Positions 4,491 through 62,106 of a DNA stretch of 64,000 nucleotides are shown here, piece after piece. Where the stretch lies: contig NZ_JAQNDL010000003.1 of NCBI RefSeq assembly GCF_028368995.1, positions 2,400,001 to 2,464,000 of the forward strand, written 5' to 3'. Every line of letters starts with the position of its first letter. Position 1 is the first letter of the stretch. A model generated the notes under the pieces. The model worked only from the letters and a program-made list of their open reading frames with translations, was not told the origin of the DNA and did not search any database. The translations under genes and the position numbers were made by a program. The stretch is from Nannocystis bainbridge (GTDB taxonomy: Bacteria; Myxococcota_A; Polyangia; Nannocystales; Nannocystaceae).

Positions 4491-4532
4491 TGTCCCCAAG
4501 AGCATGTCCTCAGCGACATGCTCCTTGGGGCA
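4491..4532. repeat. Tandem array of three 14-bp palindromic units (TGTCC-N4-GGACA family)
   Basis: tgtccccaagagca / tgtcctcagcgaca / tgctccttggggca; lies between convergent genes. Confidence 0.85.
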
Positions 4533-4603
4533 TCCAGCGATGACAGAATCGACGACGCGCGGGCCGAGCGCGAACGCACCGGCTCGCGACACGCTCATGT
4601 CCC

Positions 4604-5944
4604 TCAGGCCAGGTTCTCGGGCGAACCGACGCCGCCGAAGCGGGTCGCCAGGGTGCGCACGAACGCGGCCAGCCACGGCTGCATCGCGTCGAGCTCGCGC
4701 TCGATCGTCTTGGAGGTCACCACCACCAGCTCGCTGTCGGTCAGCGCCACCACGCTGGCGGTGCGCGGCGACGCGGCGAAGATCGCGGTCTCGCCGAACA
4801 CGTCGCCGGGGCCGAGCTCGCGCAGCACCACCTTGCCCTGGCCCCCTTTTTTAAACACCTGCAGCGTGCCGGCGCGGACGATGTAGGCCGCCTCGCCGAC
4901 CTCGCCCTCGCGGATCACGAGCTCGCCCGCGGCGACGCTCGTCACCGCGAAGCTGCCGCCGCCGCGCAGCAGCGCCTTGATGTCCTCGATCAGGTCGTCG
5001 ACGCGGGGGTAGCGGTCGGCCGGCTTGAGCGCCAGCGCCTTCATGCAGATCCGCACCAGCTCCGGCGGGAAAGTGATCGCGGCGCCGACGACGACGTCCG
5101 GCGGCGTGACCTCGCCGCGCTGCGCCATCTTCAGCACGCGCTTGGGGTCGGGGTCCTGATAGAGCGGGCGGCCGGTCAGCAGCTCGAACAGCAGGCCGCC
5201 GAGCAGGAACACGTCGGAGCGCTCGTCGAGCGACTTGCGGCGGCCCTGCGCCTGCTCGGGCGACATGTACTCCGGCGTGCCCCAGACGATGTTGTCGGCC
5301 TCCTCCGGGCGCAGCGGCGGCAGGTTCTCGTGCGTCCACACGTCCTCGGCCCCGGCGCGCGGCGGCAGCAGCAGCGCGTTACCCCAGTCCATCACGAACA
5401 CCTGGCCGTAGGCGCCGACCATGACGTTCGCTGTCTTGATGTCGCAGTGCAGCACCCCGCGGCTGTGGGCGAACGCGACGCCGTCGCACACCTTGACGAA
5501 CGCGTCGAGGCGGCGCTGCAGCTGGTCGGGCGTGCGCGGCGGTCGGCCGGCGATCAGCGAGTACAGCGAGCGGCCCTCGATCAGCTTCATCGTGAAGAAG
5601 ATGCCGCCGTCCGGGTCGCGCCCGAGCTCGTAGATCGGGGCGATGTTGGGGTGGTCGAGCTGGCCGGACACCTGGGCCTCGCGGATGAACGCGTGCACCA
5701 GCAGGTAGTACTCGTACGAGCCGGGCTGCAGGGTCTTGAGCGCCATCCGCCGCTGCAGCGACTTGTCGAACGCGACCCGCACCGAGCCGACCCCGCCGGT
5801 AGCGATCACCTCACCGATGCGCAGGTGGTTCATCGCCGCCGGCAGCACCGACTGGACCAGCGCGCGCGTGCGGTCGTCGAGCGCGATCACCTCGCCGTCG
5901 AGCCCGACGACGGTGATCGGGATGTCCACGGTCTCCTCGTCCAT
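4604..5944 (-). CDS. Ser/Thr protein kinase with C-terminal cyclic-nucleotide-binding domain
   Basis: ATGGVG, ALK, HCDIKTAN, DWG, GTPEYMSPE; cNMP domain with FGE...PRTASV. Confidence 0.9.
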   Translation of the reverse strand: MDEETVDIPITVVGLDGEVIALDDRTRALVQSVLPAAMNHLRIGEVIATGGVGSVRVAFDKSLQRRMALKTLQPGSYEYYLLVHAFIREAQVSGQLDHPNIAPIYELGRDPDGGIFFTMKLIEGRSLYSLIAGRPPRTPDQLQRRLDAFVKVCDGVAFAHSRGVLHCDIKTANVMVGAYGQVFVMDWGNALLLPPRAGAEDVWTHENLPPLRPEEADNIVWGTPEYMSPEQAQGRRKSLDERSDVFLLGGLLFELLTGRPLYQDPDPKRVLKMAQRGEVTPPDVVVGAAITFPPELVRICMKALALKPADRYPRVDDLIEDIKALLRGGGSFAVTSVAAGELVIREGEVGEAAYIVRAGTLQVFKKGGQGKVVLRELGPGDVFGETAIFAASPRTASVVALTDSELVVVTSKTIERELDAMQPWLAAFVRTLATRFGGVGSPENLA

Positions 5945-5972
5945 CGCGCGCCACCCTATCACGCGGCTGCGC

Positions 5973-7283
5973 TCATCGCATCCGCTGCAGCTGGTACCGC
6001 AGCTGCCGCAGACCGCCGCGCATGCGGGCCCGCAGGTGCCCGAGGTTGCGCCGCGTCAGCAGCTCGCGCGGCCGCAGGTACACCTCGGCGTTGAACATCG
6101 ACAGCAAGATCCGGTGACGGCGCCAGTTCTTCGCCCCGCGCACCACCCGGAGCCGCGCCGACACCCCCAGCGTCTGCAGCCCGAACGGCTGCGTCAGCGC
6201 GAACAGCAGCGGCTGCCCGCACACCTCGACGTCGGCCGCCGCCCCGCGCACCACCTCGCAGCGCCCGCGCGCCAGGTCGAGGCGCAGCGTGACCTCGAGG
6301 TCGCGCACGTCGATCGTCACCGGAGCCAGCCACGCGCGCAGCAGCCACCTCGGGTAGTGCTCGGCCAGGCGGGTCGCCAGCGTCTGGGCCGCGGCGATCA
6401 GCGCCGGCAGCTCGACCGGCGTCGGCGGGTCGAGCGGGGCCGCGCTCGCGCGCGCGAACGCCTCGTCCCACAGCTTCAGCGCCGGCCGCGAGTCCCACGC
6501 CGCGCCGACCTCGTAGTCATCACCCGGCGCGATCACGTCGAGGCGCAGCCCGAGGTGCTCGAACGCCGCCGCCACGCGCCCTGGCGTGTTGGCGTACGCG
6601 TTCATGTACGCGTTGTCCTCGCACGAGAAGCGGACGAAGCTGGCGATCGGGATCGTCGTCTCGGCGCCGAGGTCGCGATGGTTGGCGATCATGCTGTCGA
6701 CGATCGCCCGCGCCTTTCGCGGCAGCCGCTCGTCACGGTCGGCCTCGCCGCCGTAGCCGGCCAGCGAGAACTGGTTCAGCACCACCTGCGCCGGCCCGAG
6801 GTCGCCGCGGATGATGCGGCAGTCACCGGCGGCGGCCTCGGCGTCGTTGACGTTCACGAGACATGTCCCATCGGCCATGACCGCGAGGACAGAGTCCATC
6901 TGCCCGACCTGATAGCAGTACACCTGCAGCCCCGGGCGCAGGTCGACCAGGGCCCGGTGCGGCAACAGGCGGACGTCGGCGAAGCCGAGGCGGGCGAACG
7001 CCTGCGGCATCTTGTCCGTCGGCATCTGCTGGAACAGCACCGTGACGCGGCGCTTGAACGCCGGCGGCAGGTCGCGCAGCGTCGGCAGGTGGAAGTGGTC
7101 GGGGTGCTCGTGCGAGACCCACAGATAATCGACCTGCTCGAGCCACGCCGCGTCCCACACCGGAGGCGTCACCAGCGACCACGAGTTATTAAAAACCTTG
7201 CCGCCGAGCCATGGGTCGGTCCAGATCGTCGCCCCCCCGGCCTCGATCAGCAGCGACGCGTGGGCCACCAGGCGCAGCTTCAT
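5973..7283 (-). CDS. MBL-fold metallo-hydrolase (UlaG / CMP-Neu5Ac hydroxylase-like)
   Basis: HASLLIE, TDPW, SHEHPDH, MDS and NVND motifs. Confidence 0.8.
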   Translation of the reverse strand: MKLRLVAHASLLIEAGGATIWTDPWLGGKVFNNSWSLVTPPVWDAAWLEQVDYLWVSHEHPDHFHLPTLRDLPPAFKRRVTVLFQQMPTDKMPQAFARLGFADVRLLPHRALVDLRPGLQVYCYQVGQMDSVLAVMADGTCLVNVNDAEAAAGDCRIIRGDLGPAQVVLNQFSLAGYGGEADRDERLPRKARAIVDSMIANHRDLGAETTIPIASFVRFSCEDNAYMNAYANTPGRVAAAFEHLGLRLDVIAPGDDYEVGAAWDSRPALKLWDEAFARASAAPLDPPTPVELPALIAAAQTLATRLAEHYPRWLLRAWLAPVTIDVRDLEVTLRLDLARGRCEVVRGAAADVEVCGQPLLFALTQPFGLQTLGVSARLRVVRGAKNWRRHRILLSMFNAEVYLRPRELLTRRNLGHLRARMRGGLRQLRYQLQRMR

Positions 7284-7430
7284 CGCCGGCCCCTCCCGCG
7301 ATCGACCGGTCGCACGGCGACCCGGGACGCGATCACGATCTCAGGCCGCTGCATGCCGTCCACGGTCCACGGTAGCAAGCGGCCCCGGTCCTGCCAACCG
7401 CGCCGCGCGCAGGCATGAGGTCCGCGGGCC

Positions 7431-8078: not shown

Positions 8079-8190
8079 GGCGCTCTGGCACCTGGGGTAC
8101 GCCACGTCCGCGGCTGCGTCAACGGCCCGCCGGCGTGCACACGCCGCGCTTGCGGACGCGGCGGCCTCTGACATATAACGAACCCGCGAA

Positions 8191-8913: not shown

Positions 8914-9223
8914 CGATCTGTCCCGCGGGACAGGTTGATTCGCCGGGGCCGCTGCGACCGATCCTCGGGTCATGGACCTCGGGACGACTCGCGTCCGCGA
9001 CGACCTGTCCTCCGGGACAAATCGCTAGCGCTTCGCGTGACCGGGCGGGCAGACTCGCGGTGACCTGTCCTTCGAGACACCTTGTCATCACGAGCGGTCC
9101 CAAGCGCCGGGCCGCGCGCGACCTGTCCCTCAGGTCAGATCATCGCCGAGCGCGCTCGCGGGTCCGCGGCCGGGCCCCGCCGCGCGCGGCACGTCGCCCA
9201 CGACCAACCTGTCCTTCGGGGCA
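8906..9223. repeat. Dispersed 14-bp palindromes plus a 29-bp inverted repeat
   Basis: Units at 8919 (tgtcccgcgggaca), 9006, 9066, 9124 and 9210; 8906-8934 and 9004-9032 are inverted copies (26/29). Confidence 0.8.
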
Positions 9224-10571: not shown

Positions 10572-10848
10572 GCGGCGAAGGGTGCAGCGAGCGACCTGCG
10601 AAGTCCAGGCGCGATGTCGTGCCCGGTGCAGACCCATGCGCCGCGTCTTCGGCCTCGTCGTCGAGCGAGAAGACGTGCTCGCGGTGCAGGGTTCGCGCGA
10701 GCTCGCGTCTTCACGAGCGCGAGCGCCTCAGCGATCGATGACCTCGACGCCGATCCGCTCGAGCGCGCGGCGAGAGTCGTGACGCCACCGAACGAACGCA
10801 CGCGGCGGCGCGACCATGTCCACGAGCTTCAGCGTCACCGCGCGGACA

Positions 10849-10890
10849 TGTCCCATCGGCAATGTCCCATCGACCATGTCCACGGACCGT
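10849..10890. repeat. Tandem array of three 14-bp units (TGTCC-N4-GGACA family)
   Basis: tgtcccatcggcaa / tgtcccatcgacca / tgtccacggaccgt, preceded by GGACA. Confidence 0.7.
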
Positions 10891-14361: not shown

Positions 14362-14375
14362 GCGCGGCCGCCCGC

Positions 14376-16753: not shown

Positions 16754-16765
16754 GCCGTTCGGACA

Positions 16766-16835
16766 TGTCCTCTGCGACATGTCCTTTGCGCAATGCCCCG
16801 AAGGACATGTCCTCCTCGACATGTCCTTTCGCGCA
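16766..16835. repeat. Tandem array of five 14-bp palindromic units
   Basis: tgtcctctgcgaca / tgtcctttgcgcaa / tgccccgaaggaca / tgtcctcctcgaca / tgtcctttcgcgca; convergent junction. Confidence 0.9.
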
Positions 16836-21019: not shown

Positions 21020-21105
21020 TGTTCTGGAGGACATGCCCGCACGGGCATGTCCTCTTCGACATTTCTCGAATGACATGTCCTCGGGGACATGCCCCGAAAA
21101 GGACA
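21020..21105. repeat. Tandem array of six 14-bp palindromic units
   Basis: tgttctggaggaca / tgcccgcacgggca / tgtcctcttcgaca / tttctcgaatgaca / tgtcctcggggaca / tgccccgaaaaggaca (last unit 16 bp); convergent junction. Confidence 0.9.
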
Positions 21106-29708: not shown

Positions 29709-29789
29709 GGCCGGGAAGCGGAAATCTGCAGGCCCGGCCGGGAAGCGGAAATCTGCGGGCCCGGCCGGGAGGCGGAAATCCGCGGGCCC
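29709..29789. repeat. 27-bp intergenic tandem repeat x3
   Basis: ggccgggaagcggaaatctgcaggccc / ...ctgcgggccc / ggccgggaggcggaaatccgcgggccc. Confidence 0.9.
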
Positions 29790-29821
29790 GGGAGGTCACG
29801 GGGCAGCGCGCGCCGCCGGCG

Positions 29822-35170: not shown

Positions 35171-35240
35171 AGCGCGAAGGGACATGTCCGAACGAACATG
35201 CCCTCTCGCACATGTCCTCGCGGACATGCTCGAAAGGGCA
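35171..35240. repeat. Tandem array of five 14-bp palindromic units
   Basis: agcgcgaagggaca / tgtccgaacgaaca / tgccctctcgcaca / tgtcctcgcggaca / tgctcgaaagggca; between co-directional genes. Confidence 0.88.
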
Positions 35241-35270: not shown

Positions 35271-37109
35271 TCAGGCCGGCGGGAGCGCCGGCGAGGGCTC
35301 GCGCGACTTGTTCGACAGCGGCTTGTCGTTCGGGCGCGCCGGCTCGGCCTTGTCGCCGAACAGCTCGCCGAGCTGGGCGGCGTCGGCCGGCGACGGCACG
35401 AGGACCGCCTTGGGCACGCCGACGGCCAGGCTGCCGAGGTTGGGGTCGAGCTTGACGCCGATGCCGACGGCCCCGCCGATGCGGGCGAAGGCGGCCGCGC
35501 CGGTCTCGATCTTCTTCAGCCGGGCCTTGTCGGCCCGCGACTCGGCGCTGCTCAGCACCGACAGCCGCAGCAGCGCGACCGGGTCGACGCTGACGCAGAA
35601 GTGGCAGCCCTGGCTGGCGGTCCGGGCCAGGCGCAGGCCGGCGTCGCCGCCGAGCGAGGTCTTGCGGCCCTTGAGCTCGGCGCCGATGTCGCCGGCGACC
35701 TTGGTGGCGCCGGCGCCGATGGTGAACACGGCGAGGTTGCCGGTCACGAACGAGGCGGCCTCGAGCTTCTTCTTGGCGACCAGGAACGGCTCGAGATCGG
35801 CTGCCTCTTTGGCCATGTTCTTCGGGACAGGGATCGTCAGCAGGTCGCCCTTGACCGGGCCGGCCTTGGCGCCGTCGGTCTTGAGGGTGAAGCCGATCTT
35901 GGCCGACTTGTCGTCGCCGGTGAGGCTGTCGAACGCGGCGAAGCCCTTGACCAGCGCCTGCTCGATGCCGCGGATGGCCGCCCGCGCGCCGGCCTCGTCC
36001 TTGACGTTGGCGGCCAGCACGGCGGTGGCCTCGCCCTTGGGCGAGAGGTAGAGCGCGAACACGACGTCGCTCTGGACCTGGTCGAGCACAGCGTGGGCGG
36101 CGGCGACGGCGTCCTTGGCGACGACGTCGAAGGGGGCGGGGATCTGGCTCAGCGGGACGCCCTTGTCGAGGGCGCCGTGGAGGGCCTCGGGGGTGCCCCA
36201 GGGCATGGCCACGACGAGGGCGGGGCCGGCCGGGAGGACGGCCTCGAGGGCGGTCGGGGCGGTCCGCGCCGGGCCCAGCGGCGACAGGCCGAGGCGCGAG
36301 AACGGGGCCTCGGCGGCGAGCTGCAGCGCGAGGTCGCGGTCGGTGCCAGCGTCGAGCTCGAGCGAGCCGGCGGTGGCCTCGCGCAGGACCGCCTGCACCT
36401 GCCTGCGCAGGCCGGCCGGCAAGCTGTTGAGGGCGCCGGTCTCGAGCATGCCGGGCGGCAAGTCGGTGCCGCGCAGGCGCAGCCGCCGACCCTGCCCGGC
36501 CTCGCCGGCGAGCCCGGCGGCGCGCTCGAGGTCGGCGTTCGACAGCGCGAACTCGAGGGCCTTGGGCTGCTCGCGCAGCAGCACCCGCAGCTCGCCCTGG
36601 ACCAGCTCCCACAGGCCGTTGCCGAGCGGCTGCGGCCGCTGCGCCGAGGGCATGCCGTCCATGACGCCCTTGGCGCTGACGGCCGCGAGGGTGCCGGCCA
36701 GCTTGAGGTCGTTGCTGGGGTCCTGGACGTGGAAGGTGGCGTCGACGGCGAACGGGCCGGCCAGATCGAGGTTGGCCCACAGACCGGGCCCGAAGCCCAT
36801 CTGCAGCAACATCGCCTGGATCTGCGCGGCCGGATCGATCGGCTGCTTGGGGGTCCAGGCGGTGGTGGTCTGCTTGACGAGGGCCATCAGGTCGCCGGCG
36901 CCGTGGAGGCTGGCGCGCAGCTTGACCGGCTTGCCCGGCGGAGGCTTGCGCGCGGGCCGCCCGCTCTGCCCGTCGCCCGCGCCGGCGCCGTCCTCCTGCG
37001 GTTCGTCGACCACAACGACGGCGGGCGGCGGAGTCTTCTTGGCGCAGCCAAGTGTGGCAGGAGCGACGACCATGGCGATCGTCCCGAGCGCGACGCGGGC
37101 GGTGAACAT
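35271..37109 (-). CDS. Large hypothetical lipoprotein
   Basis: Lipobox TLGC; 612-aa ORF with GC-rich third positions. Confidence 0.8.
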   Translation of the reverse strand: MFTARVALGTIAMVVAPATLGCAKKTPPPAVVVVDEPQEDGAGAGDGQSGRPARKPPPGKPVKLRASLHGAGDLMALVKQTTTAWTPKQPIDPAAQIQAMLLQMGFGPGLWANLDLAGPFAVDATFHVQDPSNDLKLAGTLAAVSAKGVMDGMPSAQRPQPLGNGLWELVQGELRVLLREQPKALEFALSNADLERAAGLAGEAGQGRRLRLRGTDLPPGMLETGALNSLPAGLRRQVQAVLREATAGSLELDAGTDRDLALQLAAEAPFSRLGLSPLGPARTAPTALEAVLPAGPALVVAMPWGTPEALHGALDKGVPLSQIPAPFDVVAKDAVAAAHAVLDQVQSDVVFALYLSPKGEATAVLAANVKDEAGARAAIRGIEQALVKGFAAFDSLTGDDKSAKIGFTLKTDGAKAGPVKGDLLTIPVPKNMAKEAADLEPFLVAKKKLEAASFVTGNLAVFTIGAGATKVAGDIGAELKGRKTSLGGDAGLRLARTASQGCHFCVSVDPVALLRLSVLSSAESRADKARLKKIETGAAAFARIGGAVGIGVKLDPNLGSLAVGVPKAVLVPSPADAAQLGELFGDKAEPARPNDKPLSNKSREPSPALPPA

Positions 37110-39173: not shown

Positions 39174-41006
39174 GTGTCGCTCGCCAACCGCTTCTTCCAA
39201 CGGTACGTCCGGCGCAACCTGCCGCAGTACGCCCTGGGCTTCGCGATGTTGGTGGCGACCAACTACGCGGTGGTGCGGATCCCGACGCTCATCGGCCACG
39301 CCCTCGACGCGCTCGGCGGCGGGCAGGCCGACGCCCTCGCCGTGGGCCGCGGGATCGCCCTCGAGCTGATGATCTGGGCGGTCGCGGTGGTGGTCGTGCG
39401 CACGCTGTCGCGCGTGCTGTTCTTCAACCCCGGGCGCGAGGTCGAGTACCGCGTCAGCGTCGACCTGTTCTCGCACCTGCTGGCGCTGCAGCGGCCGTTC
39501 TTCCTCCGCCGCAAGGTCGGCGAGTTGGTCAGCATGGCGACCAACGACACGATGTCGATCCGCCTGCTCATCGGCTTCGCCGGCCTGCAGGTGTGCAACG
39601 TCCTCGTCGCGGTGCCGCTCCACCTCGGGCAGATGCTCCTCACCGACGCCTGGCTGACGCTGTGGTGCCTGCTGCCGATCGCCGCCGGCAGCGCCTACAC
39701 GATCGCGGTGGTGCGCCGGTTCTACTCGCTGATCCGGGTCTCGTTCGAGGAGCTCGGGCGGCTGTCGGACCGGGTGCTCGAGTCATACGCCGGCATCGGC
39801 ACGGTGCGGGCCCACGGGGCCGATGCGGCGATCCTGCGCCACTTCGACGCCCGCAACCAGGCCTACCTCGACCTGCAGCTGCGGCTGTCGTCGATGCGCG
39901 CGTTCTCGATGCCGGTGCTCGGGCTGTCGGGCCAGGTGGCGGCGGCGATCGTGCTGTGGGTCGGCGGCGCGCGGGTGATCGCCGGCGAGTTGCCGGTCGG
40001 CGCGCTCGTCACGTTCACCACCCTGCTCGCCAGCCTGGTCGCGCTGCTGATGGCGGTCGCGTGGGTGCTGGCCTCGGTGTCGCGCGGGATCGTGGCGGTG
40101 AAGCGCATCGACGAGGTCGTCGCCACGCCCGACGGGCTACCTGTCCCGACGGACAGCTTGCCGCCCGGCCCGCCGCCGGCGCTCGAGCTGCGCGGCCTGA
40201 CCTTCGCCTACCCGGGCGCCGAGGCGCCGTCGCTGCAGGACATCTCGTTCGCGCTCGCGCCGGGCAAGACGCTCGGGATCTTCGGCCGCACCGGCGCCGG
40301 CAAGTCGACGCTCATCCACCTGCTGTCGCGCGTCTACACCCCGCCGGCCGGGACCGTGTTCGTCGCCGGCAAGGACGTCACGAGCTTGCCTTTGGACCAG
40401 GTCCGGGCCCAGCTCGCGGTCGTGCCGCAGGACCCGTTCCTGTTCTCGAACACGCTGCGCGACAACATCCGCCTGCGCGGCGAGCGGAGCGGGCACGTGC
40501 GCGGCGAGGACGGCGGCGGCTCGGCCTCGTCGTCGCAGCTGCGCCGCGAGGAGCCCGAGGACCCGCGGCTGCAGCAGGTGCTGCGCGCGGCCTGCCTGGT
40601 CGACGACGTGCGCTCGCTGCCCGAGGGGCTCGACACGGTGGTCGGCGAGCGCGGGGTGATGCTGTCGGGCGGCCAGCGCCAGCGGACCGCCCTGGCCCGG
40701 GCGCTGTACCGCGGGCCGGGGCTGCTGCTGCTCGACGACGTGCTGTCGGCGGTCGACCAGGGCACCGAGGTCCGGCTGGTCGCGGCCATCCGCGGGCTCC
40801 ACGACGAGGGCGGCGCCGGCCTGATGCGCGAGCCGCCGAGCACCGTGATCGTGTCGCACCGCACCAGCGTGCTCGAGCACGCCGACGAGATCCTCGTGCT
40901 CGAGCGCGGCGTGGTCGTCGAGCGCGGCACGCACGCCCAGCTGCTCGCGCACGACGGCGTCTACGCCGAGACCCACCGCCACCAGGAGGCCGCGCACCAT
41001 GGCTGA
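39174..41006 (+). CDS. ABC exporter, fused permease/ATPase (heterodimer subunit 1)
   Basis: TM domain; GRTGAGKS, LSGGQ, non-canonical Walker B LLLLDD. Confidence 0.93.
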   Translation: MSLANRFFQRYVRRNLPQYALGFAMLVATNYAVVRIPTLIGHALDALGGGQADALAVGRGIALELMIWAVAVVVVRTLSRVLFFNPGREVEYRVSVDLFSHLLALQRPFFLRRKVGELVSMATNDTMSIRLLIGFAGLQVCNVLVAVPLHLGQMLLTDAWLTLWCLLPIAAGSAYTIAVVRRFYSLIRVSFEELGRLSDRVLESYAGIGTVRAHGADAAILRHFDARNQAYLDLQLRLSSMRAFSMPVLGLSGQVAAAIVLWVGGARVIAGELPVGALVTFTTLLASLVALLMAVAWVLASVSRGIVAVKRIDEVVATPDGLPVPTDSLPPGPPPALELRGLTFAYPGAEAPSLQDISFALAPGKTLGIFGRTGAGKSTLIHLLSRVYTPPAGTVFVAGKDVTSLPLDQVRAQLAVVPQDPFLFSNTLRDNIRLRGERSGHVRGEDGGGSASSSQLRREEPEDPRLQQVLRAACLVDDVRSLPEGLDTVVGERGVMLSGGQRQRTALARALYRGPGLLLLDDVLSAVDQGTEVRLVAAIRGLHDEGGAGLMREPPSTVIVSHRTSVLEHADEILVLERGVVVERGTHAQLLAHDGVYAETHRHQEAAHHG

Positions 41007-44342: not shown

Positions 44343-44445
44343 GCGCGATGCGCTCGACGCAGAGCCCGGACGCCGCCCACGCGGCGCCCGGGCTCTCGCG
44401 CGCGCCGAGGACGTGCTCGATGGTTACGGAGACGTGCGGGACCGC

Positions 44446-44543: not shown

Positions 44544-44611
44544 GCCCCGTCTCGCGAAGAGACGAGCGCCCGCGCCGCTCGGCGCGCTGCGCTCGTCCCC
44601 AGCCCGGCGGC

Positions 44612-45544: not shown

Positions 45545-45841
45545 GAGGCTGGAGGATAGCTGCTCCCGCCAGGCCGCATGACGGGGCCCCGGCCCGCCCG
45601 GCCCCTGAGGGACATCACGCCCGCCGCGCGCGCGAGCCCGTGGACGTGGTTTCACCGCGACGCAGGCCCGAGCCGCGGGGGCGATCGCCGCGACTCACCG
45701 CCGGCGCCGCCACCTCCGGCCATGACGCGGCGGATGTCCTCCCGCGAGCCGTGACATGGCCCGAAGGACATGTCCCGCCCCCGGCGGCCCTTGACGGCGC
45801 GCTCGATGGGGCCAGCGGGCCGCAGAACCATGGCCCGCGGC

Positions 45842-46096: not shown

Positions 46097-46525
46097 ATGT
46101 CCATCCGCGATCAGGCGAAAGACTGGGCCAAGCAGCAGACCGACCAGATCCGCAGCGACCCGAGGGGGTGGGCCAAGGCCCAGGGTGAGCGCTTCAAGCA
46201 GATGGTCGACGTGGCGCCGTTCAGCGACGCGGCGCTCGAGCGCGAGCTCCGGTCCCTGCGCGAGCGCTCGGCCCGCCTGAGCCAGCTCGACGGCGACGAG
46301 CGGCAGAAGCTGGCCGACGAGCTGCTGGCCCTCCACGAGCGCCTCACCGCCGGCGGCGCGCTCATCAGCGGCGCCAAGATCGGCCTCGCCGCCTCGGTCC
46401 TGCCGGTCGTCGGCATGATCACCGGCCCGGTCCTCGGCAGCGCCTACGGCGTGTACCGCTCGCAGCGCCTCGGCGAGGTCCGCGAGGAGGTGCAGGCGAT
46501 GCTGCGCAAGCTCGCTCGCGGCTGA
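46097..46525 (+). CDS. Hypothetical helical protein with C-terminal Gly-rich hydrophobic hairpin
   Basis: 142-aa ORF with GC-rich third positions; GAKIGLAASVLPVVGMITGPVLGSAYG. Confidence 0.75.
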   Translation: MSIRDQAKDWAKQQTDQIRSDPRGWAKAQGERFKQMVDVAPFSDAALERELRSLRERSARLSQLDGDERQKLADELLALHERLTAGGALISGAKIGLAASVLPVVGMITGPVLGSAYGVYRSQRLGEVREEVQAMLRKLARG

Positions 46526-46615
46526 GCCCGCTCGCGGGAGCGCGTGAGCCGCGGGCGCGTGCCCTGAGCGACGCCGTCGCGTATGCGTGACCGGATCTGC
46601 GGGCGAGCGCCGGCC

Positions 46616-46767
46616 CGACGAACCTTGCGACGTGTCGCGTCGCAAGGTTCGTCGCGACGTGCGAGCGCCGGCCGACGAGCGCGAGCGCCGGCGACCTGTC
46701 GCGTCGCGAGGTTCATTGCGGCGTCCGAGCGCCGGACCGAGGAGCGCGAGCGCCGGCTACGTGTCGC
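46616..46767. repeat. 17-bp perfect hairpin plus degenerate ~64-bp tandem repeat
   Basis: cgacgaaccttgcgacg-tgtcg-cgtcgcaaggttcgtcg (46616-46654); repeat units start at 46633, 46697 and 46762. Confidence 0.75.
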
Positions 46768-46810
46768 ACCGTGACGTCGTCGCGGCGCCTGGACCGGCCC
46801 CGCGTCATCA

Positions 46811-46911
46811 TGTCTCTTCGGACAGCCGCGTTCGAGCCCCGGCAGGTCCCCCCGACATGTCTCATGGGCCATCTTTATGAACATGTCTCTTCGGACATGT
46901 CCTTCGTGCAA
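46811..46911. repeat. Cluster of 14-bp palindromic units upstream of the response regulator
   Basis: tgtctcttcggaca (46811, 46884), tgtctcatgggcca (46858), tgtccttcgtgcaa (46898). Confidence 0.8.
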
Positions 46912-47047
46912 GGTCCACATGCCAGAGCTATTCTTTTAAAAGGGGAAGTCTCTTGGGACAGCTTCTTGCTTGACCTCATGAACTCGCCTTCATGCGGACG
47001 GCGGCCTGCGGTCACCGGGGTGGACCGCGCGTGCTAGGGTTTGGTGC

Positions 47048-47701
47048 GTGGAACCGAAGCAGGTTGTTCGGGTGTTGCTGGCGGACGATCACGCGATTGT
47101 CCGGGAGGGGGTCCGCATGCTGCTCGCTGACCAGCCTGGCATCGAGGTCGTGGGCGAGGTCGCCGACGGTCGCGCGGCGGTCGCCGCGGTCGGGCAGCTC
47201 CGACCCGATGTCGTCGTCATGGACCTCGGCATGCCGGAGTTGAACGGCGTCGAGGCGACCCGGGCGATCTGCCGCGATTTTCCTGGCACCCAGGTCCTCG
47301 TGCTCTCGATGTACGCTGGCGAGGAGTACGTGCGCCCGGCGATCCGCGCCGGCGCCAGCGGCTATCTTTTGAAGGGGTCGGGCTTCACCGAGCTGCTCGC
47401 TGCGATCGCGGCCGTGGCGCGCGGCGGCGCCTTCTTCAGCCCGGCGATCGCCAAGCTCGTGCTCGTCGACTCGCGCCGGCGCGAGGACCATCCTGCCGAC
47501 GCCCTCACCCAGCGCGAGTGCGAGATCCTCCGGCTCGTCGTTCAGGGCCAGTCGAGCAACCAGATCGCCCGTGACCTCGGTCTCAGCATGAAGACCGTCG
47601 AGGGCCACCGCGGGCGGATCATGGCCAAGCTCGACGTGCACCACCTCGCCGGCCTGGTGCGCTACGCCGTGCGGGCCGGCATCGTCTCGCCGGATCCGTG
47701 A
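47048..47701 (+). CDS. NarL/LuxR-family response regulator (no cognate kinase in window)
   Basis: ADDHAIVREG, MDLGMPELNG, GYLLK, LTQRE...KTVEGHR. Confidence 0.95.
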   Translation: MEPKQVVRVLLADDHAIVREGVRMLLADQPGIEVVGEVADGRAAVAAVGQLRPDVVVMDLGMPELNGVEATRAICRDFPGTQVLVLSMYAGEEYVRPAIRAGASGYLLKGSGFTELLAAIAAVARGGAFFSPAIAKLVLVDSRRREDHPADALTQRECEILRLVVQGQSSNQIARDLGLSMKTVEGHRGRIMAKLDVHHLAGLVRYAVRAGIVSPDP

Positions 47702-47785
47702 GCGGCGGCGTTTCTATTTTTATTAAAGCTGCGTTACCTGGGGGGCGCCAGCGCGCCAGCGCGCCGGGCGCAGATCGCTGGACCA

Positions 47786-47855
47786 TGTTCTTTCAGACAT
47801 GCCCTCGCGGACATGCTCCATCGGACATGCCCTCACAGACATGTCCGAATCGCCA
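47786..47855. repeat. Tandem array of five 14-bp palindromic units
   Basis: tgttctttcagaca / tgccctcgcggaca / tgctccatcggaca / tgccctcacagaca / tgtccgaatcgcca; convergent junction. Confidence 0.9.
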
Positions 47856-47860
47856 CCCGC

Positions 47861-50458
47861 TCACAGCCCGAACATGTGCTGCAGCTTGAGGAACAGGATG
47901 TCCTCGTTGGCGACCCCCGGGGTGACCAGGTTGCTGAAGCCGCCGATCGGTCGGTAGCTGAAGCGGGGGCTGAAGTCGGTCAGCACGGTGCGGTGGGTGT
48001 AGACGAAGAACAGGAAGCTGCCGGGGCGGTACTCCCAGCGGAGGATCGAGTTGGAGATGAAGCTCGTGAGGCCCTGGTCGACCTCGCCGACGTAGGGCGC
48101 CGGGTTGACCGGCACGAGCACGTCGGGGCGCTGGAGCACGAAGAAATCGGTGTGGCGGGCCGACAGGAAGTACAGCTGATTGAAGGTCTGCAGCGTCAGG
48201 TTGGGCAGGATGCCGAGGGTGCCGCGCAGCACGCCGATGTACTGGGTCACGTAAGCGCGGCCGAACACGGCCTCGTCGAGCTCGTTGGTGGTGGTCCAGC
48301 GCGGGCGGCCGAAGCTGAGGTTGAGGTCGCCGCGCAGCGTCAGCTCGAGCCGCGGCACCGGCCGGAGGCGCAGCTCGACCCCGTAGTCGGGGCCTGGGCG
48401 GCCGTTCTGCTCGCCGTAGGCCCAGTTGAACACGCCGACGACCTTCTTGTTGTCGGGGCTCCAGTAGGTGCCGCCGATCCACCAGTGGAACGGCACCAGG
48501 TACGGGATCCCGCCGCGCGTCTCGTACAGGTCGTACTGCGGCAGGTGGCCGCCGGCGTTCATCGAGGTGCCCCACAGCTTGAGCGTGGTGAGGTTGAGGT
48601 CGAGGTGGAGCTGCTTCTGCAGCAGGTAGCCCTGGTACGACGACGCCACCTGCGTCGACACCGTCGCCGCCATACGGCGGATGTTGCCGACCGGCTGGGC
48701 GTTGAACACACCGACGTTGGCCTTGCCGTCGATGAAGTTGTTGAAGCGCATGTAGCCGAGGTCGTTGAAGTCGGCGTGCGGCGTGAGGGTCTCGAAGGCC
48801 GCCCCCATCGACAGGTTCTTGCTGGTGCGGTTGATGTCGGCCACCGCGCCCATGCCCTCGCGGCGGCCGTTGTGCGTGCCGATGATCTGGGCCGAGTGGC
48901 GCCAGCGCTCGCGGAAGCGGATCCGGTAGTCGATGCCGCCGGTGAACGCCGACGGCTCGCCGCCGCCGCGCACCACCCCGGTCACGAGCGCGCCGATGCT
49001 GGTCTGGCCGTCGAACTCGCGGCGCACGCGGACCACCGAGTACTGGCTGATCGGGTCGACGGTGACGCGGCGCTCGAGGCCGTCGGAGAAGCGCTCGACG
49101 CCGAAGCTGGCGCCGGTGTTGGCCGTCAGCACGCCGAGGCTCCAGCCCGGCTTGACCTGGCCGGTGACGCGCAGGGCCCCGAAGATGCGGGTCAGCGGAT
49201 CGAGCGCGACGACCTCGCCCGTCTCCTCGCCGCGCGGGGTCTGGTCGGCCAGCCCGGCCCGCGGGATGCGCCCCACTCGGCGCGAGTAGAACAGCTGGAA
49301 CCGCGTCTCGAAGATCTCCTTGGACTCGAGGAAGAACGTGCGCCGCTCGGGGAAGTAGACCTCGAACGGCCCGAGGTTCAGCACCGCCGGGTCGACCTCG
49401 GCCTGGCCGAAGTCGGGGTTGACCGCGAGGTCGAGCGTCAGGTTGCCGCGCAGGCCGTACTTGAGGTCGAAGCCGCCGTTGGGCAGCAGCGGGAACGAGC
49501 GGTCGAGGCTGTCGTCGCCGCGCCGCGGCACGCCGCGCAGCGAGAAGAACGGCCGCAGCTCGAGGTTGAGGCCCGGCTGGATGTCCTTGACCCCGGTGTA
49601 GTCGAGCGCCCAGCTGATGCGGCCCGGCAGGCCCTGCGGCGTGGGCGACAGGATCTGGGTCTCGCCGTCGTGGTTGATCCACCGGCCGACGTTGACGCCG
49701 AAGGTGTACTCGTCGCGCGCGGTGAAGCGGATCGTCGACCACGGGATGAACATCTCGGCCGACCAACCGGTGTCGGTCAGCCTGGCCGCGCCCTTCCACA
49801 CCCCATCCCACAAAAACTCCTCGGAGTCGTCGCGAAACAGCTGCGAGTCCTCCTGCGAGCCGGAGGCGTTGAGCGCGAACGAGTAGCCGGTGGTGTCGTT
49901 GTTGTTGGGGTCGAGCTCGAGCCAGACGATGTCGCTGGGGCCGAGCTGGTCCTTGCGAAACACGCCGGCGCGCACGTGCTTCGGGTCGTCCTGGCAGTCG
50001 AAGGCGACGTAGATGCCCTTGCTGCCGTAGGCGATCCGCACCCGCGTCTCGTGGGTCGGCGCGTAGCCGTAGCGCGGCTCGAACTGGACCAGGTCGGGCA
50101 GCAGCGGCACCGCCAGCCAGGCCGGCTCGCTGGTCCGGCCGTCGATGTCGATCGCGCCGTCGTCGATGCGCGTCGACCTCAGCTTGAAGTCCCGCACCCG
50201 CGCCTTGCCGACGATCGGCCGCAGCGGCGGGGCGCTGGTCGGCCGGACCCAAAGTGGCGCTTGGGACATGTCCTGAACGCCAGCTCGCGGCGACGGCGGG
50301 GTCGGCAGCGGCGCGCTCGCCCCGGGCGCCAGCTTGTCGACGGCGGGCCCGGCCGCGGGCGCGGGCGCGGCGGCGCCTGCGGCCGGCACCGGGCCGACGA
50401 CGCGTGCAGACAGACCCCACGCGACCAGGACCCAGACAGGCAGGAGCTGCGCGAGCAC
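47861..50458 (-). CDS. DUF5916-like outer-membrane protein with N-terminal CBM9-like domain
   Basis: IDGRTSEPAW, WSAEMFIPW, NPDFGQAEVD, ERRTFFLE, LFYSRRVG, LRWEYRPGS. Confidence 0.82.
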   Translation of the reverse strand: MLAQLLPVWVLVAWGLSARVVGPVPAAGAAAPAPAAGPAVDKLAPGASAPLPTPPSPRAGVQDMSQAPLWVRPTSAPPLRPIVGKARVRDFKLRSTRIDDGAIDIDGRTSEPAWLAVPLLPDLVQFEPRYGYAPTHETRVRIAYGSKGIYVAFDCQDDPKHVRAGVFRKDQLGPSDIVWLELDPNNNDTTGYSFALNASGSQEDSQLFRDDSEEFLWDGVWKGAARLTDTGWSAEMFIPWSTIRFTARDEYTFGVNVGRWINHDGETQILSPTPQGLPGRISWALDYTGVKDIQPGLNLELRPFFSLRGVPRRGDDSLDRSFPLLPNGGFDLKYGLRGNLTLDLAVNPDFGQAEVDPAVLNLGPFEVYFPERRTFFLESKEIFETRFQLFYSRRVGRIPRAGLADQTPRGEETGEVVALDPLTRIFGALRVTGQVKPGWSLGVLTANTGASFGVERFSDGLERRVTVDPISQYSVVRVRREFDGQTSIGALVTGVVRGGGEPSAFTGGIDYRIRFRERWRHSAQIIGTHNGRREGMGAVADINRTSKNLSMGAAFETLTPHADFNDLGYMRFNNFIDGKANVGVFNAQPVGNIRRMAATVSTQVASSYQGYLLQKQLHLDLNLTTLKLWGTSMNAGGHLPQYDLYETRGGIPYLVPFHWWIGGTYWSPDNKKVVGVFNWAYGEQNGRPGPDYGVELRLRPVPRLELTLRGDLNLSFGRPRWTTTNELDEAVFGRAYVTQYIGVLRGTLGILPNLTLQTFNQLYFLSARHTDFFVLQRPDVLVPVNPAPYVGEVDQGLTSFISNSILRWEYRPGSFLFFVYTHRTVLTDFSPRFSYRPIGGFSNLVTPGVANEDILFLKLQHMFGL

Positions 50459-50604: not shown

Positions 50605-51771
<1,167 letters not shown>

Positions 51772-51773: not shown

Positions 51774-51848
51774 TGACCTTCGGGACATGCCCTCCGGGGC
51801 ATGTCCCTCCCGACATGTAAAAAGGGACATGCTCCGCAGAGCATGTCC
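51774..51848. repeat. Tandem array of five and a half 14-bp palindromic units
   Basis: tgaccttcgggaca / tgccctccggggca / tgtccctcccgaca / tgtaaaaagggaca / tgctccgcagagca / tgtcc; convergent junction. Confidence 0.9.
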
Positions 51849-51867
51849 CTTTTTCTTTAGCCCGCCG

Positions 51868-56837: not shown

Positions 56838-57140
56838 TGCTGGTAATCCTTGTGGGGCTTAGTACCGGGTGCCGACACGCCTCGCGCATGCGCGTTGCGT
56901 TTCGCGGGTTTGAGACAGCGCGGGGCACGGTACGCCAGAGTCACGGAGGGCGTCAATACACCGGAGGGCGGCCGTGCAACCAAGGTTGCACACTAAAGAT
57001 GGTTCGCCTCGAGCACCGTCGAGCACGCGATGATCGTCAGCTTCGGTCGAGTAGTGGGACGAGAATGCGTGAAGCAACGCACGCAAGCGGGAGCACCGCG
57101 ATGTCCGAGGTCGCGGTCAAAAGGGCGCTAAGAGTCGCTC

Positions 57141-59120: not shown

Positions 59121-60721
59121 TGACCGTGCCCTCTGCCCCCCAGCGGGTTCGCGTCGACCTCCACCCCGACGCCCTCCTCGACCCCGCCGCCCTGCGCACC
59201 GCCGCCGCCCGCGCGGCCGGCCTGCGCGAGGCCGAGGTCCGCCACGTCGAGGTCGCCCACCGCTCGATCGACGCCCGCCGCGGCCGCGTCCGCGTCCACG
59301 TCGAGCTCGTCGTGCATGTCGGCAAGGACATGCCCGAAGCGCCATGTTACTTGCCACATGTCCTACCGAACATGTCCCAGGAGCCAGCCGTCGTCATCGT
59401 CGGCGCCGGGCCGGCGGGGCTGTTCTGCGCCTGGGGCCTGGCGCGCGCCGGCGTGCGCGCGGTCGTGCTCGAGCGCGGGCGCGACGTGCGGGCGCGGCGG
59501 CACGACCTCGCCGGGCTGAGCCAGCGCGGCGAGCTCGACCCCGAGAGCAACTACTGCTTCGGCGAGGGCGGCGCCGGCACCTACTCCGACGGCAAGCTCT
59601 ATACTCGCGCGACCAAGCGCGGGCCGGTAGATCTGGTCCTGCAGGCCTTCGCCGGCTACGGCGCGCCTGCGGAGATCCTCGTCGACGCCCGGCCGCACAT
59701 CGGCACCAACCGGCTGCCGCGGGTGATCACCGCCATGCGCGAGCACCTCATCGGCGCCGGCGTGGTGGTCCGCTTCGAGGCCCGCGCCGACGCCCTGGTC
59801 GTGCACGACGGCGCGGCCGCGGGCGTGCGCCTGCGCGACGGCGAGGTCGTGCCGGCCCGCGCCGTCGTCGTCGCGCCCGGCCACTCGGCCCGCGACGTCC
59901 AGGCCTGGCTGCGCGCGGCCGGGGTCCAGCTGTCCTTCAAGTCGTTCGCGCTCGGCGTCCGCATCGAGCACCCGCAGGCGCTCGTCGACCGCCTGCAGTA
60001 CGGCGCGCTCGCCGGTCACCCGGCGCTCGGGGCCGCCTCTTACCGCCTCGTCGAGCAGACCAGCGCGGGCGCGGCCTTCTCGTTCTGCATGTGCCCCGGC
60101 GGCTACATCGTGCCCGCGGCCACCGACCCTGGCATGCAGGTCGTCAACGGCATGAGCCCGCACAGCCGGCGCGGCCTGTTCGCCAACTCGGGGCTCGTCA
60201 CCGAGGTCGGCCCGCAGCACCTCGCCGCCGCCGGCCTGTCGCCCGCCGACCCGCTCGCCGGCGTCGAGTATCAGTCGCGCTTCGAGGCCGAGGCCTACCG
60301 CGCCGGCGGTGGGGCCTTCGTCGCCCCGGCCCAGCGCCTCGCCGACTTCGTCGCCGGCGCCCTCTCGCCCGAGCTGCCGCCGACCAGCTATCACCGCGGC
60401 CTCCAGCCGGCCCGCCTCGACCGGCTGCTCGGCCCGCTCGGCCCGCCGCTCCAAGCCGCGCTGCAGGCCCTCGGCGCGCGCATGCCGGGCTTCCTCGGCG
60501 ACGACGCGATCGCCGTGGGTGTCGAGAGCCGCACCAGCTGCCCGGTCCGCATCGACCGCGACGGCGAGACCCTCGAGTCGCCGAGCACCCCGCACCTCTA
60601 CCCGTGCGGCGAGGGAGCGGGATTCGCCGGCGGCATCGTCTCCGCCGCGCTCGACGGCCTCCGCGTCGCGGTCGCCATCGCCCGTCGCCTCGGCGCCCCG
60701 CACGAGCGGATTACGAGCTGA
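59120..60721 (+). CDS. FAD-dependent oxidoreductase (uncharacterised dehydrogenase family)
   Basis: VGAGPAG, FGEGGAGTYSDGKL, PHIGT, GHSARD, FCMCPGG, GEGAGFAGGIVSAA; TGATG coupling to the peptidase. Confidence 0.9.
   Translation: MTVPSAPQRVRVDLHPDALLDPAALRTAAARAAGLREAEVRHVEVAHRSIDARRGRVRVHVELVVHVGKDMPEAPCYLPHVLPNMSQEPAVVIVGAGPAGLFCAWGLARAGVRAVVLERGRDVRARRHDLAGLSQRGELDPESNYCFGEGGAGTYSDGKLYTRATKRGPVDLVLQAFAGYGAPAEILVDARPHIGTNRLPRVITAMREHLIGAGVVVRFEARADALVVHDGAAAGVRLRDGEVVPARAVVVAPGHSARDVQAWLRAAGVQLSFKSFALGVRIEHPQALVDRLQYGALAGHPALGAASYRLVEQTSAGAAFSFCMCPGGYIVPAATDPGMQVVNGMSPHSRRGLFANSGLVTEVGPQHLAAAGLSPADPLAGVEYQSRFEAEAYRAGGGAFVAPAQRLADFVAGALSPELPPTSYHRGLQPARLDRLLGPLGPPLQAALQALGARMPGFLGDDAIAVGVESRTSCPVRIDRDGETLESPSTPHLYPCGEGAGFAGGIVSAALDGLRVAVAIARRLGAPHERITS
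59317..59386. repeat. Five 14-bp units embedded inside the oxidoreductase CDS
   Basis: tgtcggcaaggaca / tgcccgaagcgcca / tgttacttgccaca / tgtcctaccgaaca / tgtcccaggagcca. Confidence 0.82.
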
Positions 60722-60809
60722 CCTTCAGGACAGGCCCCGCGCGTCGGGCGTCTGCGTGACGTTTTTCACTCCTACACCCAGCGTGGGAGGACTGTCTTCA
60801 CGCGAGCGC

Positions 60810-62021
60810 ATGCCTTCTTATGTGCGCATGCGCTCGACACGATGTCTTCCCTTGGTCCTGCTGACCGCGTGCACCGTCTATCAGGTCCCCGACGAGGGGG
60901 ACACCGACACTACCGGAGCGACCAGCATCGGGACCGGTTTGACCGGCACTGGCACTGGCACCGACGCCACGACCGACCAGCCTGACCCGACGACCTCGTC
61001 GACCAGCAGCAGCACCACCGGACCCGACCCGAGCGCCGGGCCCAGCAGCGACCCGACCGTCAGCAGCGATCCGACCACGGAAGATCCGCCGCCTGCGGAC
61101 TGCGACTTCCCGACCTCGATCCAGCCGATCTTCAGCGCCAGCTGCGGCTGCCACCTCAGCGGCATGCCGCCCAAGGGGCTGGTGCTCAGCGAGGGCTCGG
61201 CGTTTGCCGCGCTGGTCGGCGTCGACAGCATGGGCCAGCCCGGCACCCCGCACGTCGACCCGGGCAACTCGGCCGGCAGCTGGCTCATCACCAAGCTCAA
61301 CCCGGCGCCGCCGGTCGGCCTGCAGATGCCCGAGGGCGGCATGCTCTCGGCCGACCAGATCGCCCTGATCGCCGCCTGGATCGACGCCGGCGCGCCCGAG
61401 GCCGGCTCGTTCGCCTGCGACGGCGGCAGCCAGGGCGAGGCCGGCTCGGTCACCATCGACGAGCAGGGCCCGGCGAACGTGGAGATCGGCGAGATGCTGG
61501 ACCTCGACGTCACGGTCCTCGACGCCCAGGGCGACCCGGTCGTCGGCCCGACGGTCAAGTGGATCTCGAGCGACGAGACGGTCCTCTACGTCGACGCCAA
61601 GGGCACCCTGCTCGGCCTCAACCCCGGCACCTCCGAGGTGACCGCCGAGGTCGAGGGCGTGACGAGCGAGCCGCTGTCGGTCTCGGTCCTCAACAACCAG
61701 GCGGTCGCCGCCGCCAGCTTCACCGACGCGCTCAACGTGCTCTCGACCAACTGCGGCTGCCACAAGGGCGCGATGCCCCCCGCCGCCCTGGCCTTCGACC
61801 TCGCCGGCCCCGACGTGCTCGCCGCCCTGCTCGCCCCCGCCACCCAGGACCCGGCGACCAAGCGCGTCATCCCCGACCTCCCGGGCAGCAGCTACCTGTT
61901 CAAGAAGCTCACCCGCACCGTCCAGACCACCGGCGAGCAGATGCCGAAGGGCAAGGCCCCGCTCGAGGCCGAGAAGGTGCAGATCCTGTTCCGCTGGATC
62001 TTCAACGGCGCGCCGGCCTGA
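60810..62021 (+). CDS. Lipoprotein with two cytochrome c-like domains (CxCH motifs) flanking an Ig-like domain
   Basis: Lipobox LTAC; SCGCH...QMP...WIDAGA; Ig-like WISSD...VTAEVEG; NCGCH...QMP...WIFNGA. Start may be 60828. Confidence 0.8.
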   Translation: MPSYVRMRSTRCLPLVLLTACTVYQVPDEGDTDTTGATSIGTGLTGTGTGTDATTDQPDPTTSSTSSSTTGPDPSAGPSSDPTVSSDPTTEDPPPADCDFPTSIQPIFSASCGCHLSGMPPKGLVLSEGSAFAALVGVDSMGQPGTPHVDPGNSAGSWLITKLNPAPPVGLQMPEGGMLSADQIALIAAWIDAGAPEAGSFACDGGSQGEAGSVTIDEQGPANVEIGEMLDLDVTVLDAQGDPVVGPTVKWISSDETVLYVDAKGTLLGLNPGTSEVTAEVEGVTSEPLSVSVLNNQAVAAASFTDALNVLSTNCGCHKGAMPPAALAFDLAGPDVLAALLAPATQDPATKRVIPDLPGSSYLFKKLTRTVQTTGEQMPKGKAPLEAEKVQILFRWIFNGAPA

Positions 62022-62022
62022 C

Positions 62023-62106
62023 CGGCACTCGGGACATGCTCGAACGAGCATGTCCCGAACGACATGTCTTGAGTGACATGCCCCGACGGGCATGTCACTT
62101 CAGACA
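62023..62106. repeat. Tandem array of six 14-bp palindromic units
   Basis: cggcactcgggaca / tgctcgaacgagca / tgtcccgaacgaca / tgtcttgagtgaca / tgccccgacgggca / tgtcacttcagaca; fills the convergent intergenic gap. Confidence 0.92.

Follow-up and report, generated by a model that had tools for sequence, protein, structure and literature searches.

Phased arrays of a bipartite 14-bp palindrome behind Nannocystis stop codons look like undescribed relatives of REP and HIP repeats

We analyzed a 64-kb stretch of the Nannocystis bainbridge genome (positions 2,400,001 to 2,464,000 of contig NZ_JAQNDL010000003.1; hereafter the window), in which copies of a 14-bp palindrome, TGTCC-N4-GGACA, abut one another in arrays between genes, and examined this unit in the whole genome and in related genomes. 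First, we found that it is the sequence of the unit, with its gap fixed at 4 nt, that is conserved and not a base-paired stem. Second, lattices of such units immediately behind stop codons persist at orthologous junctions, and unit number and spacers turn over. The arrays are best explained as clusters of a bipartite palindrome that is highly iterated throughout the genus Nannocystis, and they look like an undescribed relative of the repetitive extragenic palindrome (REP) and highly iterated palindrome (HIP) repeat families. Inspection of the sequence found every array that a preliminary description of the window had listed. That description had missed the genome-wide iteration of the palindrome, which extends into coding sequence against codon bias, as well as many arrays at tandem junctions.

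The genome holding the window is 11.05 Mb long (5 contigs, 71.5% G+C). Genes were called with a crude GC3/codon-model caller, in which stops are exact, starts approximate and some calls wrong; it calls approximately 83% of the genome as coding. In genome-wide counts, an array means at least three CATG boxes spaced exactly 14 bp apart, unless two or more boxes are stated. Five relatives syntenic with the window (89-91% identity) were used for evolutionary comparison, and synonymous resampling of codons served as the null for units in coding sequence.

The 14-bp unit and its register

The core unit is TGTCC-N4-GGACA, with an extended consensus of approximately RCMTGTCC-N4-GGACAKGY. The consensus of an array can be read in two equivalent ways, either as abutting TGTCC-N4-GGACA units or as GGACATGTCC boxes of 10 bp with 4 nt between them, and adjoining sites overlap in ACATGT. 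Positions -4 to -1 of exact units favor G/A, A/G, C and A/C, symmetrically on both sides; this R-C-M preference gives a full palindrome of about 20 bp, and within arrays the adjacent unit provides the flank. Arm specificity was uneven: position 2 was G in 746/759 genic and 1241/1257 intergenic near-matches, T1 and C4 were conserved at about 90%, and T3 and C5 at 66-80%. Among boxes picked solely by the presence of CATG in both neighbors, 1670 of 2073 had an exact core, with each core base 92-94% conserved. On the other hand, the N10 spacers were nearly unique, the commonest accounting for 14 of 3736. The preliminary reading of a 14-bp palindrome whose arms are conserved and whose centre is free is borne out.

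Genome-wide counts revealed how narrowly this geometry is defined. There were 1987 copies of TGTCC-N4-GGACA, compared with 2-16 for gaps of 2, 3 and 5-8 nt and 13 for the reversed order GGACA-N4-TGTCC. Relative to TGTCC, GGACA was enriched only at -33, -19, -5, +9, +23 and +37, which is a half-site lattice. Gap-centred pairing of half-sites (1987) was twice as common as CATG-centred pairing (956), whereas single TGTCC half-sites (12351) were not enriched over the approximately 10250 calculated by hand from base composition. The 5-4-5 dyad is thus the minimal enriched element.

The register between neighboring units was equally strict. CATG-N10-CATG occurred 3736 times, in contrast with 66-476 times at other spacings between 6 and 23, and spacing peaks recurred at 14, 28, 42, 56, 70 and 84. 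Chains of three or more CATG at 14 bp numbered 801 versus 0-24 at nine other spacings, so both the genome-wide enrichment and the 14-bp spacing peak that the preliminary description had proposed as checks were found. When two boxes were accepted, 2066 arrays with 5802 boxes altogether were obtained, the longest having 12 boxes. In the window, GGACATG occurred 57 times against 6.4 expected from shuffles; together with the genome-wide counts, this rules out chance. Tandem Repeats Finder reported period 14 at 10848, 16762, 35196, 44454, 46881, 47796, 51777 and 62033. Exact-phase CATG chains of five boxes lie at 47784, 51786 and 62035 and one of four boxes at 35183; exact-phase pairs, joined by degenerate boxes, are at 4503, 16764, 16806, 21032, 21074 and 44486. 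The description of CATG recurring every 14 bp thus held for the five boxes at 51786 and 62035, but its sixth position at the latter array, 62105, reads CATC.

Several analyses argued against selection for pairing. The two arms varied independently: a left TCC met a right GGA at 0.96 of the independent expectation, and the inner triplets were fully complementary in 667 of 3736 cases (18%; 551 expected). Real arrays folded at -32.0 kcal/mol compared with -30.7 kcal/mol for arrays column-shuffled between units, only about 4% better. Loop tetranucleotides were strand-symmetric on the sense strand (TTCG 129 versus CGAA 135), and there was no U-tract: when arrays were viewed in orientation, 2.5-4% had TTTT in the 22 nt downstream, which does not exceed the AAAA and upstream controls. 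Independent arms and a constant 4-nt gap indicate that the unit is recognized by its sequence, for which a dimeric protein bound along a 14-bp lattice is the simplest candidate.

Units were found on every contig, and their count correlated with GC content (0.42-0.76), with deserts in lower-GC stretches. Several 100-kb stretches (G000:C1, 0.5-0.6 and 1.1-1.3 Mb; G000:C5, 0.4-0.6 Mb) were nearly free of units and arrays, and may represent acquired islands or very large biosynthetic genes.

Placement behind stops, turnover and occurrence in genes

The 801 arrays comprised 428 in convergent, 292 in tandem and 29 in divergent spacers, the other 52 being inside called genes. Arrays were present at 29% of convergent junctions, compared with 7% of tandem and 2% of divergent ones; the proportions were 47%, 15% and 8% for two or more boxes, and 60%, 28% and 18% for any unit or two-box array. 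Expressed as density, convergent spacers carried 1.43 arrays per kb and divergent spacers 0.054 per kb, a 26-fold difference. The preliminary claim that arrays mark convergent junctions is thus supported as a preference and not as an exclusive association, given the tandem arrays. In the window, arrays were found at 7/9 convergent junctions by our own gene calls, in agreement with the 7/10 reported previously, and at 0/9 divergent junctions; the absence from divergent junctions holds within the window but not genome-wide.

The relation to stop codons was close. The first box lay mainly 0-30 nt past the stop codon, units in tandem spacers were nearer the upstream stop in 2230 cases versus nearer the downstream start in 1038, and arrays filled about half of the convergent spacer in the median. 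In metagenome contigs of relatives, one DNA and one RNA contig both end just before the array at 51764; these ends say nothing on transcript ends, since assemblies break at such repeats.

Comparison with the five relatives showed that arrays persist as their units change. Anchors were mapped in all five relatives at three of the six junctions tried (16753, 44342 and 47701), where an in-phase array was present in 5/5, 3/5 and 5/5 relatives, respectively. At junction 21005 the anchors were mapped in one relative, and the array was present there; junctions 51771 and 62021, looked at separately, had an array in 5/5 relatives. Box number, spacers and box orientation varied between species, so that units could not be aligned, whereas adjacent GC-rich hairpins in the same spacer could. 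Identity across relatives was 44% at array positions versus 62% in other intergenic DNA. Hypermutable loops are not needed to account for this, because other intergenic DNA is itself just 62% identical and fast loop change may be neutral.

How arrays arise was also considered. Recent slippage, which the preliminary description had discounted from the varied centres, was rejected here as well: adjacent units were identical in 20 of 1670 cases (0.5 expected), which rules out recent tandem duplication as a general source, and were reverse complements in 3 of 1670, which speaks likewise against inverted duplication. Transposition or ectopic copying of multi-unit blocks was rejected too, as a 28-mer was shared by 25 of 801 arrays, mostly in larger duplicated regions. 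Separately, 40-mers common to arrays were seen near contig ends (G000:C1, ~4.516-4.534 Mb; G000:C2, ~3.023-3.031 Mb), which points to large duplicated segments or unresolved repeats. In a distant Nannocystis (locus L015, G009:C2:183932-187743), an insert of ~670 bp replaces the array at the junction orthologous to 51771/51868; it has long terminal inverted repeats and resembles a miniature inverted-repeat transposable element.

Approximately 39% of exact units were inside called genes. Coding sequence contained 774 units, compared with 8-13 after synonymous resampling, and the reversed-order control gave 7 against 3-5. Genic units occurred in all three reading frames (430/248/64), following the fit of each frame to codon usage. 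The unit at 40142 was identical in 4/5 relatives, with one base altered in the fifth, and orthologues from four other genera and a distant Nannocystis member aligned gap-free across it; therefore, this unit arose by substitution and not by insertion. Genic near-units were conserved like coding DNA generally (94% versus 92%).

Among the genomes searched, the motif is confined to a narrow lineage. All 11 Nannocystis genomes contained units (114-2090), two sister genera had 87 and 161, and the remaining genomes searched had at most 7, with controls at 0-10. Among 26 genomes of the family representing 17 genera, the 18-nt form CATGTCC-N4-GGACATG was found only in Nannocystis and the two sister genera; the 15 genomes of these three genera all bear the motif, and 14 genera lack it. 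Three-box arrays were present in 9/10 other Nannocystis genomes, whereas searches of 8 further genera of the family and of 12 further families found none. In one sister-genus genome, all of the 15 distinct unit sites looked at were single and mostly within open frames. Dispersed units thus seem to predate the arrays. A global scan of species genomes for a four-box pattern repeatedly named Nannocystis among the matches listed; the matches listed for other taxa amounted to one stretch, or to as many as three in a few genomes, and were taken for ordinary tandem repeats. Metagenome contigs were also scanned for closer strains with exact patterns from conserved coding anchors beside arrays, and no match was found.

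Known repeat families and competing explanations

A literature search found no published description of the motif or of such arrays in myxobacteria, and Rfam gave no match at or above the gathering score on either strand of the 64-kb window. The preliminary statement that no described system is recognizable is in line with these results, the closest known kinds being REP elements with their mosaic clusters (bacterial interspersed mosaic elements, BIME) and HIP1-type palindromes. In the sections of a REP survey consulted here, REPs lie downstream of genes and between unidirectional or convergent open reading frames, in arrays and as transcribed hairpins, and the survey records 5-bp stems, REPs within genes and families without tag or transposase (PMC3733652); the same sections make no mention of myxobacteria. 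As far as these sections go, the likeness to the REP/BIME of Enterobacteria and the REPINs of Pseudomonas is that of lineage-specific, high-copy palindromes at 3' ends that are clustered, hairpin-forming and in part genic. Several differences should be considered. The Nannocystis unit spans 14 bp (20 bp when extended) with arms of 5-8 bp, whereas a REP spans 20-40 bp; its copies abut in strict 14-bp register, and the arms lack covariation. The flanks read R-C-M, and the flank profile of exact units contained no GTAG or CGTC tag. The Y1 transposase of REP elements (RAYT, PF01797) was found neither in the genome of the window (0/1) nor in any of the 11 Nannocystis genomes, by a search that was positive in 6/14 reference genomes as a control. 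Finally, the high copy number and 3' bias of REPs are shared, but a large part of the exact Nannocystis units is genic and made by substitution. Unit number also turns over at orthologous junctions in BIMEs, as in the Nannocystis arrays.

HIP1 (GCGATCGC) of cyanobacteria, for which over-representation of 15- to 300-fold is given in the part of the source used here (PMC5861425), offers a second likeness, being a short, lineage-wide palindrome roughly a hundredfold over-represented in genes and spacers. Similarly, the Nannocystis palindrome is many-fold over-represented in coding and non-coding DNA beyond codon usage. However, HIP1 is a contiguous 8-mer recognized by two methyltransferases and is not known to form phased tandem arrays at gene ends, whereas in Nannocystis the motif has two parts around 4 free nucleotides. 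DNA uptake sequences (DUS) of Neisseria and uptake signal sequences (USS) of Pasteurellaceae have at least ~1000 copies, both genic and as inverted pairs in terminators, with genus dialects and a drive acting on point mutations, but they are not palindromic and are not known to form in-register arrays. Short sites that abut in register are known from MetJ met-boxes, omega-protein heptads and Fur hexamer arrays, where dimers touch their neighbors and wind round the DNA. The Nannocystis arrays have this tandem-operator geometry, with dyad half-sites at fixed spacing and neighbors in exact register; those systems serve few promoters or plasmid centromeres, in contrast with hundreds of gene ends and genes here. 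With intrinsic terminators the arrays share a GC-rich hairpin right behind the stop, and one array member, at 51825-51858, has A5/T5 flanks, but the arrays generally lack a U-tract, and all members have one stem sequence and one loop length.

The fixed gap, independent arms, per-base specificity, overlapping lattice and pressure on coding sequence together favor a dimeric double-stranded-DNA-binding protein with contacts between neighbors. We tentatively prefer, at somewhat less than even likelihood, a barrier at the 3' ends of genes that would work in the manner of REP/BIME, with a HIP1-like iterated palindrome as its building block and a putative binder. The unit would be the recognition site of a sequence-specific homodimeric protein, which would bind single sites everywhere and oligomerize on lattices. 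At 14 bp per step, each site would be rotated by about 120 degrees, and three sites would span four helical turns. The protein-DNA lattice, together with stable transcribed hairpins, could then form a barrier at 3' ends that stops or pauses read-through and protects transcript 3' ends, which is the work ascribed to REP/BIME, here without a RAYT transposase. A bolder version, which we consider improbable, is that a genus-specific DNA-binding protein polymerizes on lattices behind ~800-2000 genes and also marks ~770 genic sites, providing genome-wide roadblocks or insulators that separate convergent units, as a sequence-coded way of ending transcription or a topological barrier where gene ends generally lack U-tract terminators.

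Several points weigh against the barrier with a putative binder. Complementary non-consensus inner triplets were in 1.8-fold excess, for which a double-stranded-DNA-binding protein gives no account, and such a protein alone does not account either for the excess of G·U-type mismatches on the sense strand: at tandem junctions oriented by transcription, these numbered 597 versus 434 of A·C type (z 5.1), a skew that was not seen in the spacers or in the remainder of the same intergenic regions. No binder was found among the array-flanked genes or among small genes with an upstream unit. Thousands of sites would, to our knowledge, far exceed any bacterial operator set. The barrier function is suggested by placement only, and the crude gene caller introduces error into the junction classes themselves.

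The search for a partner covered three kinds of candidates. First, 85 genes were flanked by arrays on both sides, and the sole recurrent family among them was one of cysteine-rich secreted lipoproteins (5 paralogues, no Pfam match). Lipoprotein-like paralogues of ~300 aa lie at loci L155 (G000:C1:3450901-3453700), L156, L157 and L158 with arrays on both sides of each, and in one 38-bp spacer within the family the last CATG box provides the ATG start of the next gene. Second, an autoregulated binder was sought among the 113 genes with an exact unit upstream; the 35 of at most 260 residues were scanned against Pfam and included three ordinary regulators, one each of the OmpR, MarR and ArsR types, and nothing distinctive. 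Third, a D12-class methyltransferase, the only class searched, was rejected as a partner, since it was present in 24/26 family genomes whether or not the motif was.

The alternative that survives best, which we regard as possible though doubtful, is a pure REP-like hairpin element. Here stem-loops of single-stranded DNA or RNA, serving to end or stabilize transcripts, would be the form in which units are selected or spread, and the shared sequence would reflect common descent, a structure-specific enzyme or an RNA-binding protein, with no double-stranded-DNA binder involved. The 3'-end placement and the convergent bias are those expected of such an element and, in the consulted sections, of REPs, which likewise include genic copies and families without tag or transposase (PMC3733652). 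The G·U asymmetry fits as well. Hairpin-type neighboring boxes were enriched 1.6-1.9 fold, with direct neighbors also enriched (1.3 fold), and the example arrays that were folded were very stable (z -3.5 to -11.8). At the slow-changing junction 51771, two hairpins are kept in 6/6 species with differing loops; all 25 pairs are intact bar one gap, and 2 pairs changed compensatorily. However, a loop of exactly 4 nt in nearly all copies, consensus arms without covariation, the small share of fully complementary inner triplets and almost no gain in fold energy over column-shuffled arrays argue against pairing as the selected property. A strict phase held between separate hairpins, strand-symmetric loops and the lack of a U-tract (TTTT at control level) would not be expected either. 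The absence of Y1_Tnp from the Nannocystis genomes, the origin of genic units by substitution and the lack of shared multi-unit segments between arrays point in the same direction. Nevertheless, placement behind stops, the G·U asymmetry and the conserved hairpins indicate transcription of the arrays and some importance of their RNA hairpins. Of the two roles proposed in the preliminary description, a landing platform for a dimeric or polymerizing protein thus gains from the fixed geometry, independent arms and 14-bp lattice but lacks a binder, and a family of RNA 3'-end hairpins gains from the sense-strand asymmetry and the hairpins conserved across species.

We consider it unlikely that the motif results from a sequence drive without any gene-end function, such as an uptake signal of the DUS/USS kind or, following a proposal made for HIP1, a bias tied to methylation or repair, by which copies would pile up where they are least harmful, behind stop codons. 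The genic units against codon bias (774 versus ~10 expected, all frames used), the occurrence on all contigs with lower-GC deserts and a GC correlation, and the restriction to one lineage whose sister genus has a low-density, mainly single-unit state are in accord with a drive, as is the comparable over-representation given for HIP1 in the part of its source used here (PMC5861425). On the other hand, the 26-fold difference in array density between convergent and divergent spacers exceeds what tolerance alone should give, and the strict 14-bp register requires cooperative recognition anyway. The G·U asymmetry and cross-species hairpins point to constraint at the RNA level, and the D12-class methyltransferase does not track the motif.

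Type IIA topoisomerases cut with a 4-bp stagger at dyad-symmetric sites, and gyrase sites have been reported for BIME-2. By analogy, units might be preferred gyrase sites where positive supercoils build up between convergent genes, but in spite of the dyad symmetry around a free 4-bp centre and the convergent enrichment this is highly improbable, as the 99% specificity at single arm positions is far sharper than the loose preferences of gyrase, the motif is confined to one genus whereas gyrase is universal, and nothing known of gyrase wrapping corresponds to a 14-bp lattice.

Little is understood of the way in which high-GC bacteria that have few U-tract terminators end and insulate their transcripts, and in this regard myxobacteria, with genomes of 11-13 Mb, have received little study. 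The Nannocystis element is sharply defined: one motif in one register at hundreds of gene ends, with boxes kept in five syntenic relatives as the spacers change. A binder, should there be one, would be a new factor of the nucleoid or of termination. Otherwise, the arrays would be a clean case of REP-like hairpin arrays persisting without a RAYT transposase. They would also show for a second time, now beyond the cyanobacteria, that a palindrome can be driven into coding sequence in spite of codon bias. In practical terms, arrays break short-read assemblies, and they would matter when Nannocystis biosynthetic gene clusters are engineered, where they could serve as terminators or insulators but also make clones unstable.

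Array features of the window and minor observations

The arrays and units of the window are as follows, with junctions named by the coordinates that bound them.

2081..2099: exact unit plus CATG box, genic, inside minus-strand gene 1622-2410
4489..4533: array at convergent junction 4477/4604, two exact-phase CATG boxes with degenerate flanking boxes, beginning ~12 nt past the stop
8919..9019: dispersed exact units at convergent junction 8913/9130, TGTCCCGCGGGACA at 8919 and TGTCCTCCGGGACA at 9006, isolated and out of phase
10844..10881: period-14 array, 2.4 copies, 90% match
16761..16830: array filling convergent junction 16753/16847, 2+2 exact boxes with a degenerate CAATG box between
21020..21095: array at convergent junction 21005/21109, 2+2 exact boxes
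35180..35230: four-box array at a tandem junction, immediately 3' of the stop of minus-strand gene 35271-37109
40142..40155: exact unit in an ABC-transporter gene, in a linker between domains, read as L-P-V-P-T-D-S with rare codons
44454..44535: array mid-way in convergent junction 44342/44612, with a GC-rich hairpin on each side
45753-45775: two-box element GTGACATGGCCCGAAGGACATGTCCC (boxes within 45755-45772), missing from the preliminary description, in a spacer that is divergent or tandem, as gene calls disagree
46811..46994: loose box cluster plus two two-box elements (46882, 46977), inside a 546-bp tandem junction
47784..47846: five-box array adjoining the stop of minus-strand gene 47861-50458, boxes mainly in direct orientation (GACATGC)
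51783..51858: five-box array, two perfect hairpins plus a middle box, second hairpin kept in 6/6 species
62032..62106: array filling convergent junction 62021/62109, five exact boxes plus one degenerate

Stability of the RNA folds differed among these arrays. The array at 62032..62106 folded at -57.5 and -62.3 kcal/mol on the two strands (z approximately -11.5) and that at 16761..16830 at -35.7 kcal/mol (z -7.2), whereas the array at 47784..47846 folded more weakly than the others that were folded (-24 and -34 kcal/mol on the two strands). The second hairpin of the array at 51783, at about 51820-51858, reads GGGACATGCTC-CGCA-GAGCATGTCCC and is flanked by A5 and T5, and these flanks persist in most of six species; judged by its sequence, it looks like a bidirectional intrinsic terminator.

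At junction 44342/44612, the GC-rich hairpins (44347-44400 and 44545-44600) each lie right behind a stop and are alignable in 5/5 relatives, whereas the intervening array is not; termination itself may be the work of these hairpins, or they may represent some other conserved element. The long spacer 46525-47072 contains, beside its loose box cluster, a 64-bp tandem repeat (2.2 copies, 87% match, 46627-46767). Finally, a 27-bp tandem repeat (3.1 copies, 94% match, 29709-29791) occupies a spacer between two minus-strand genes.

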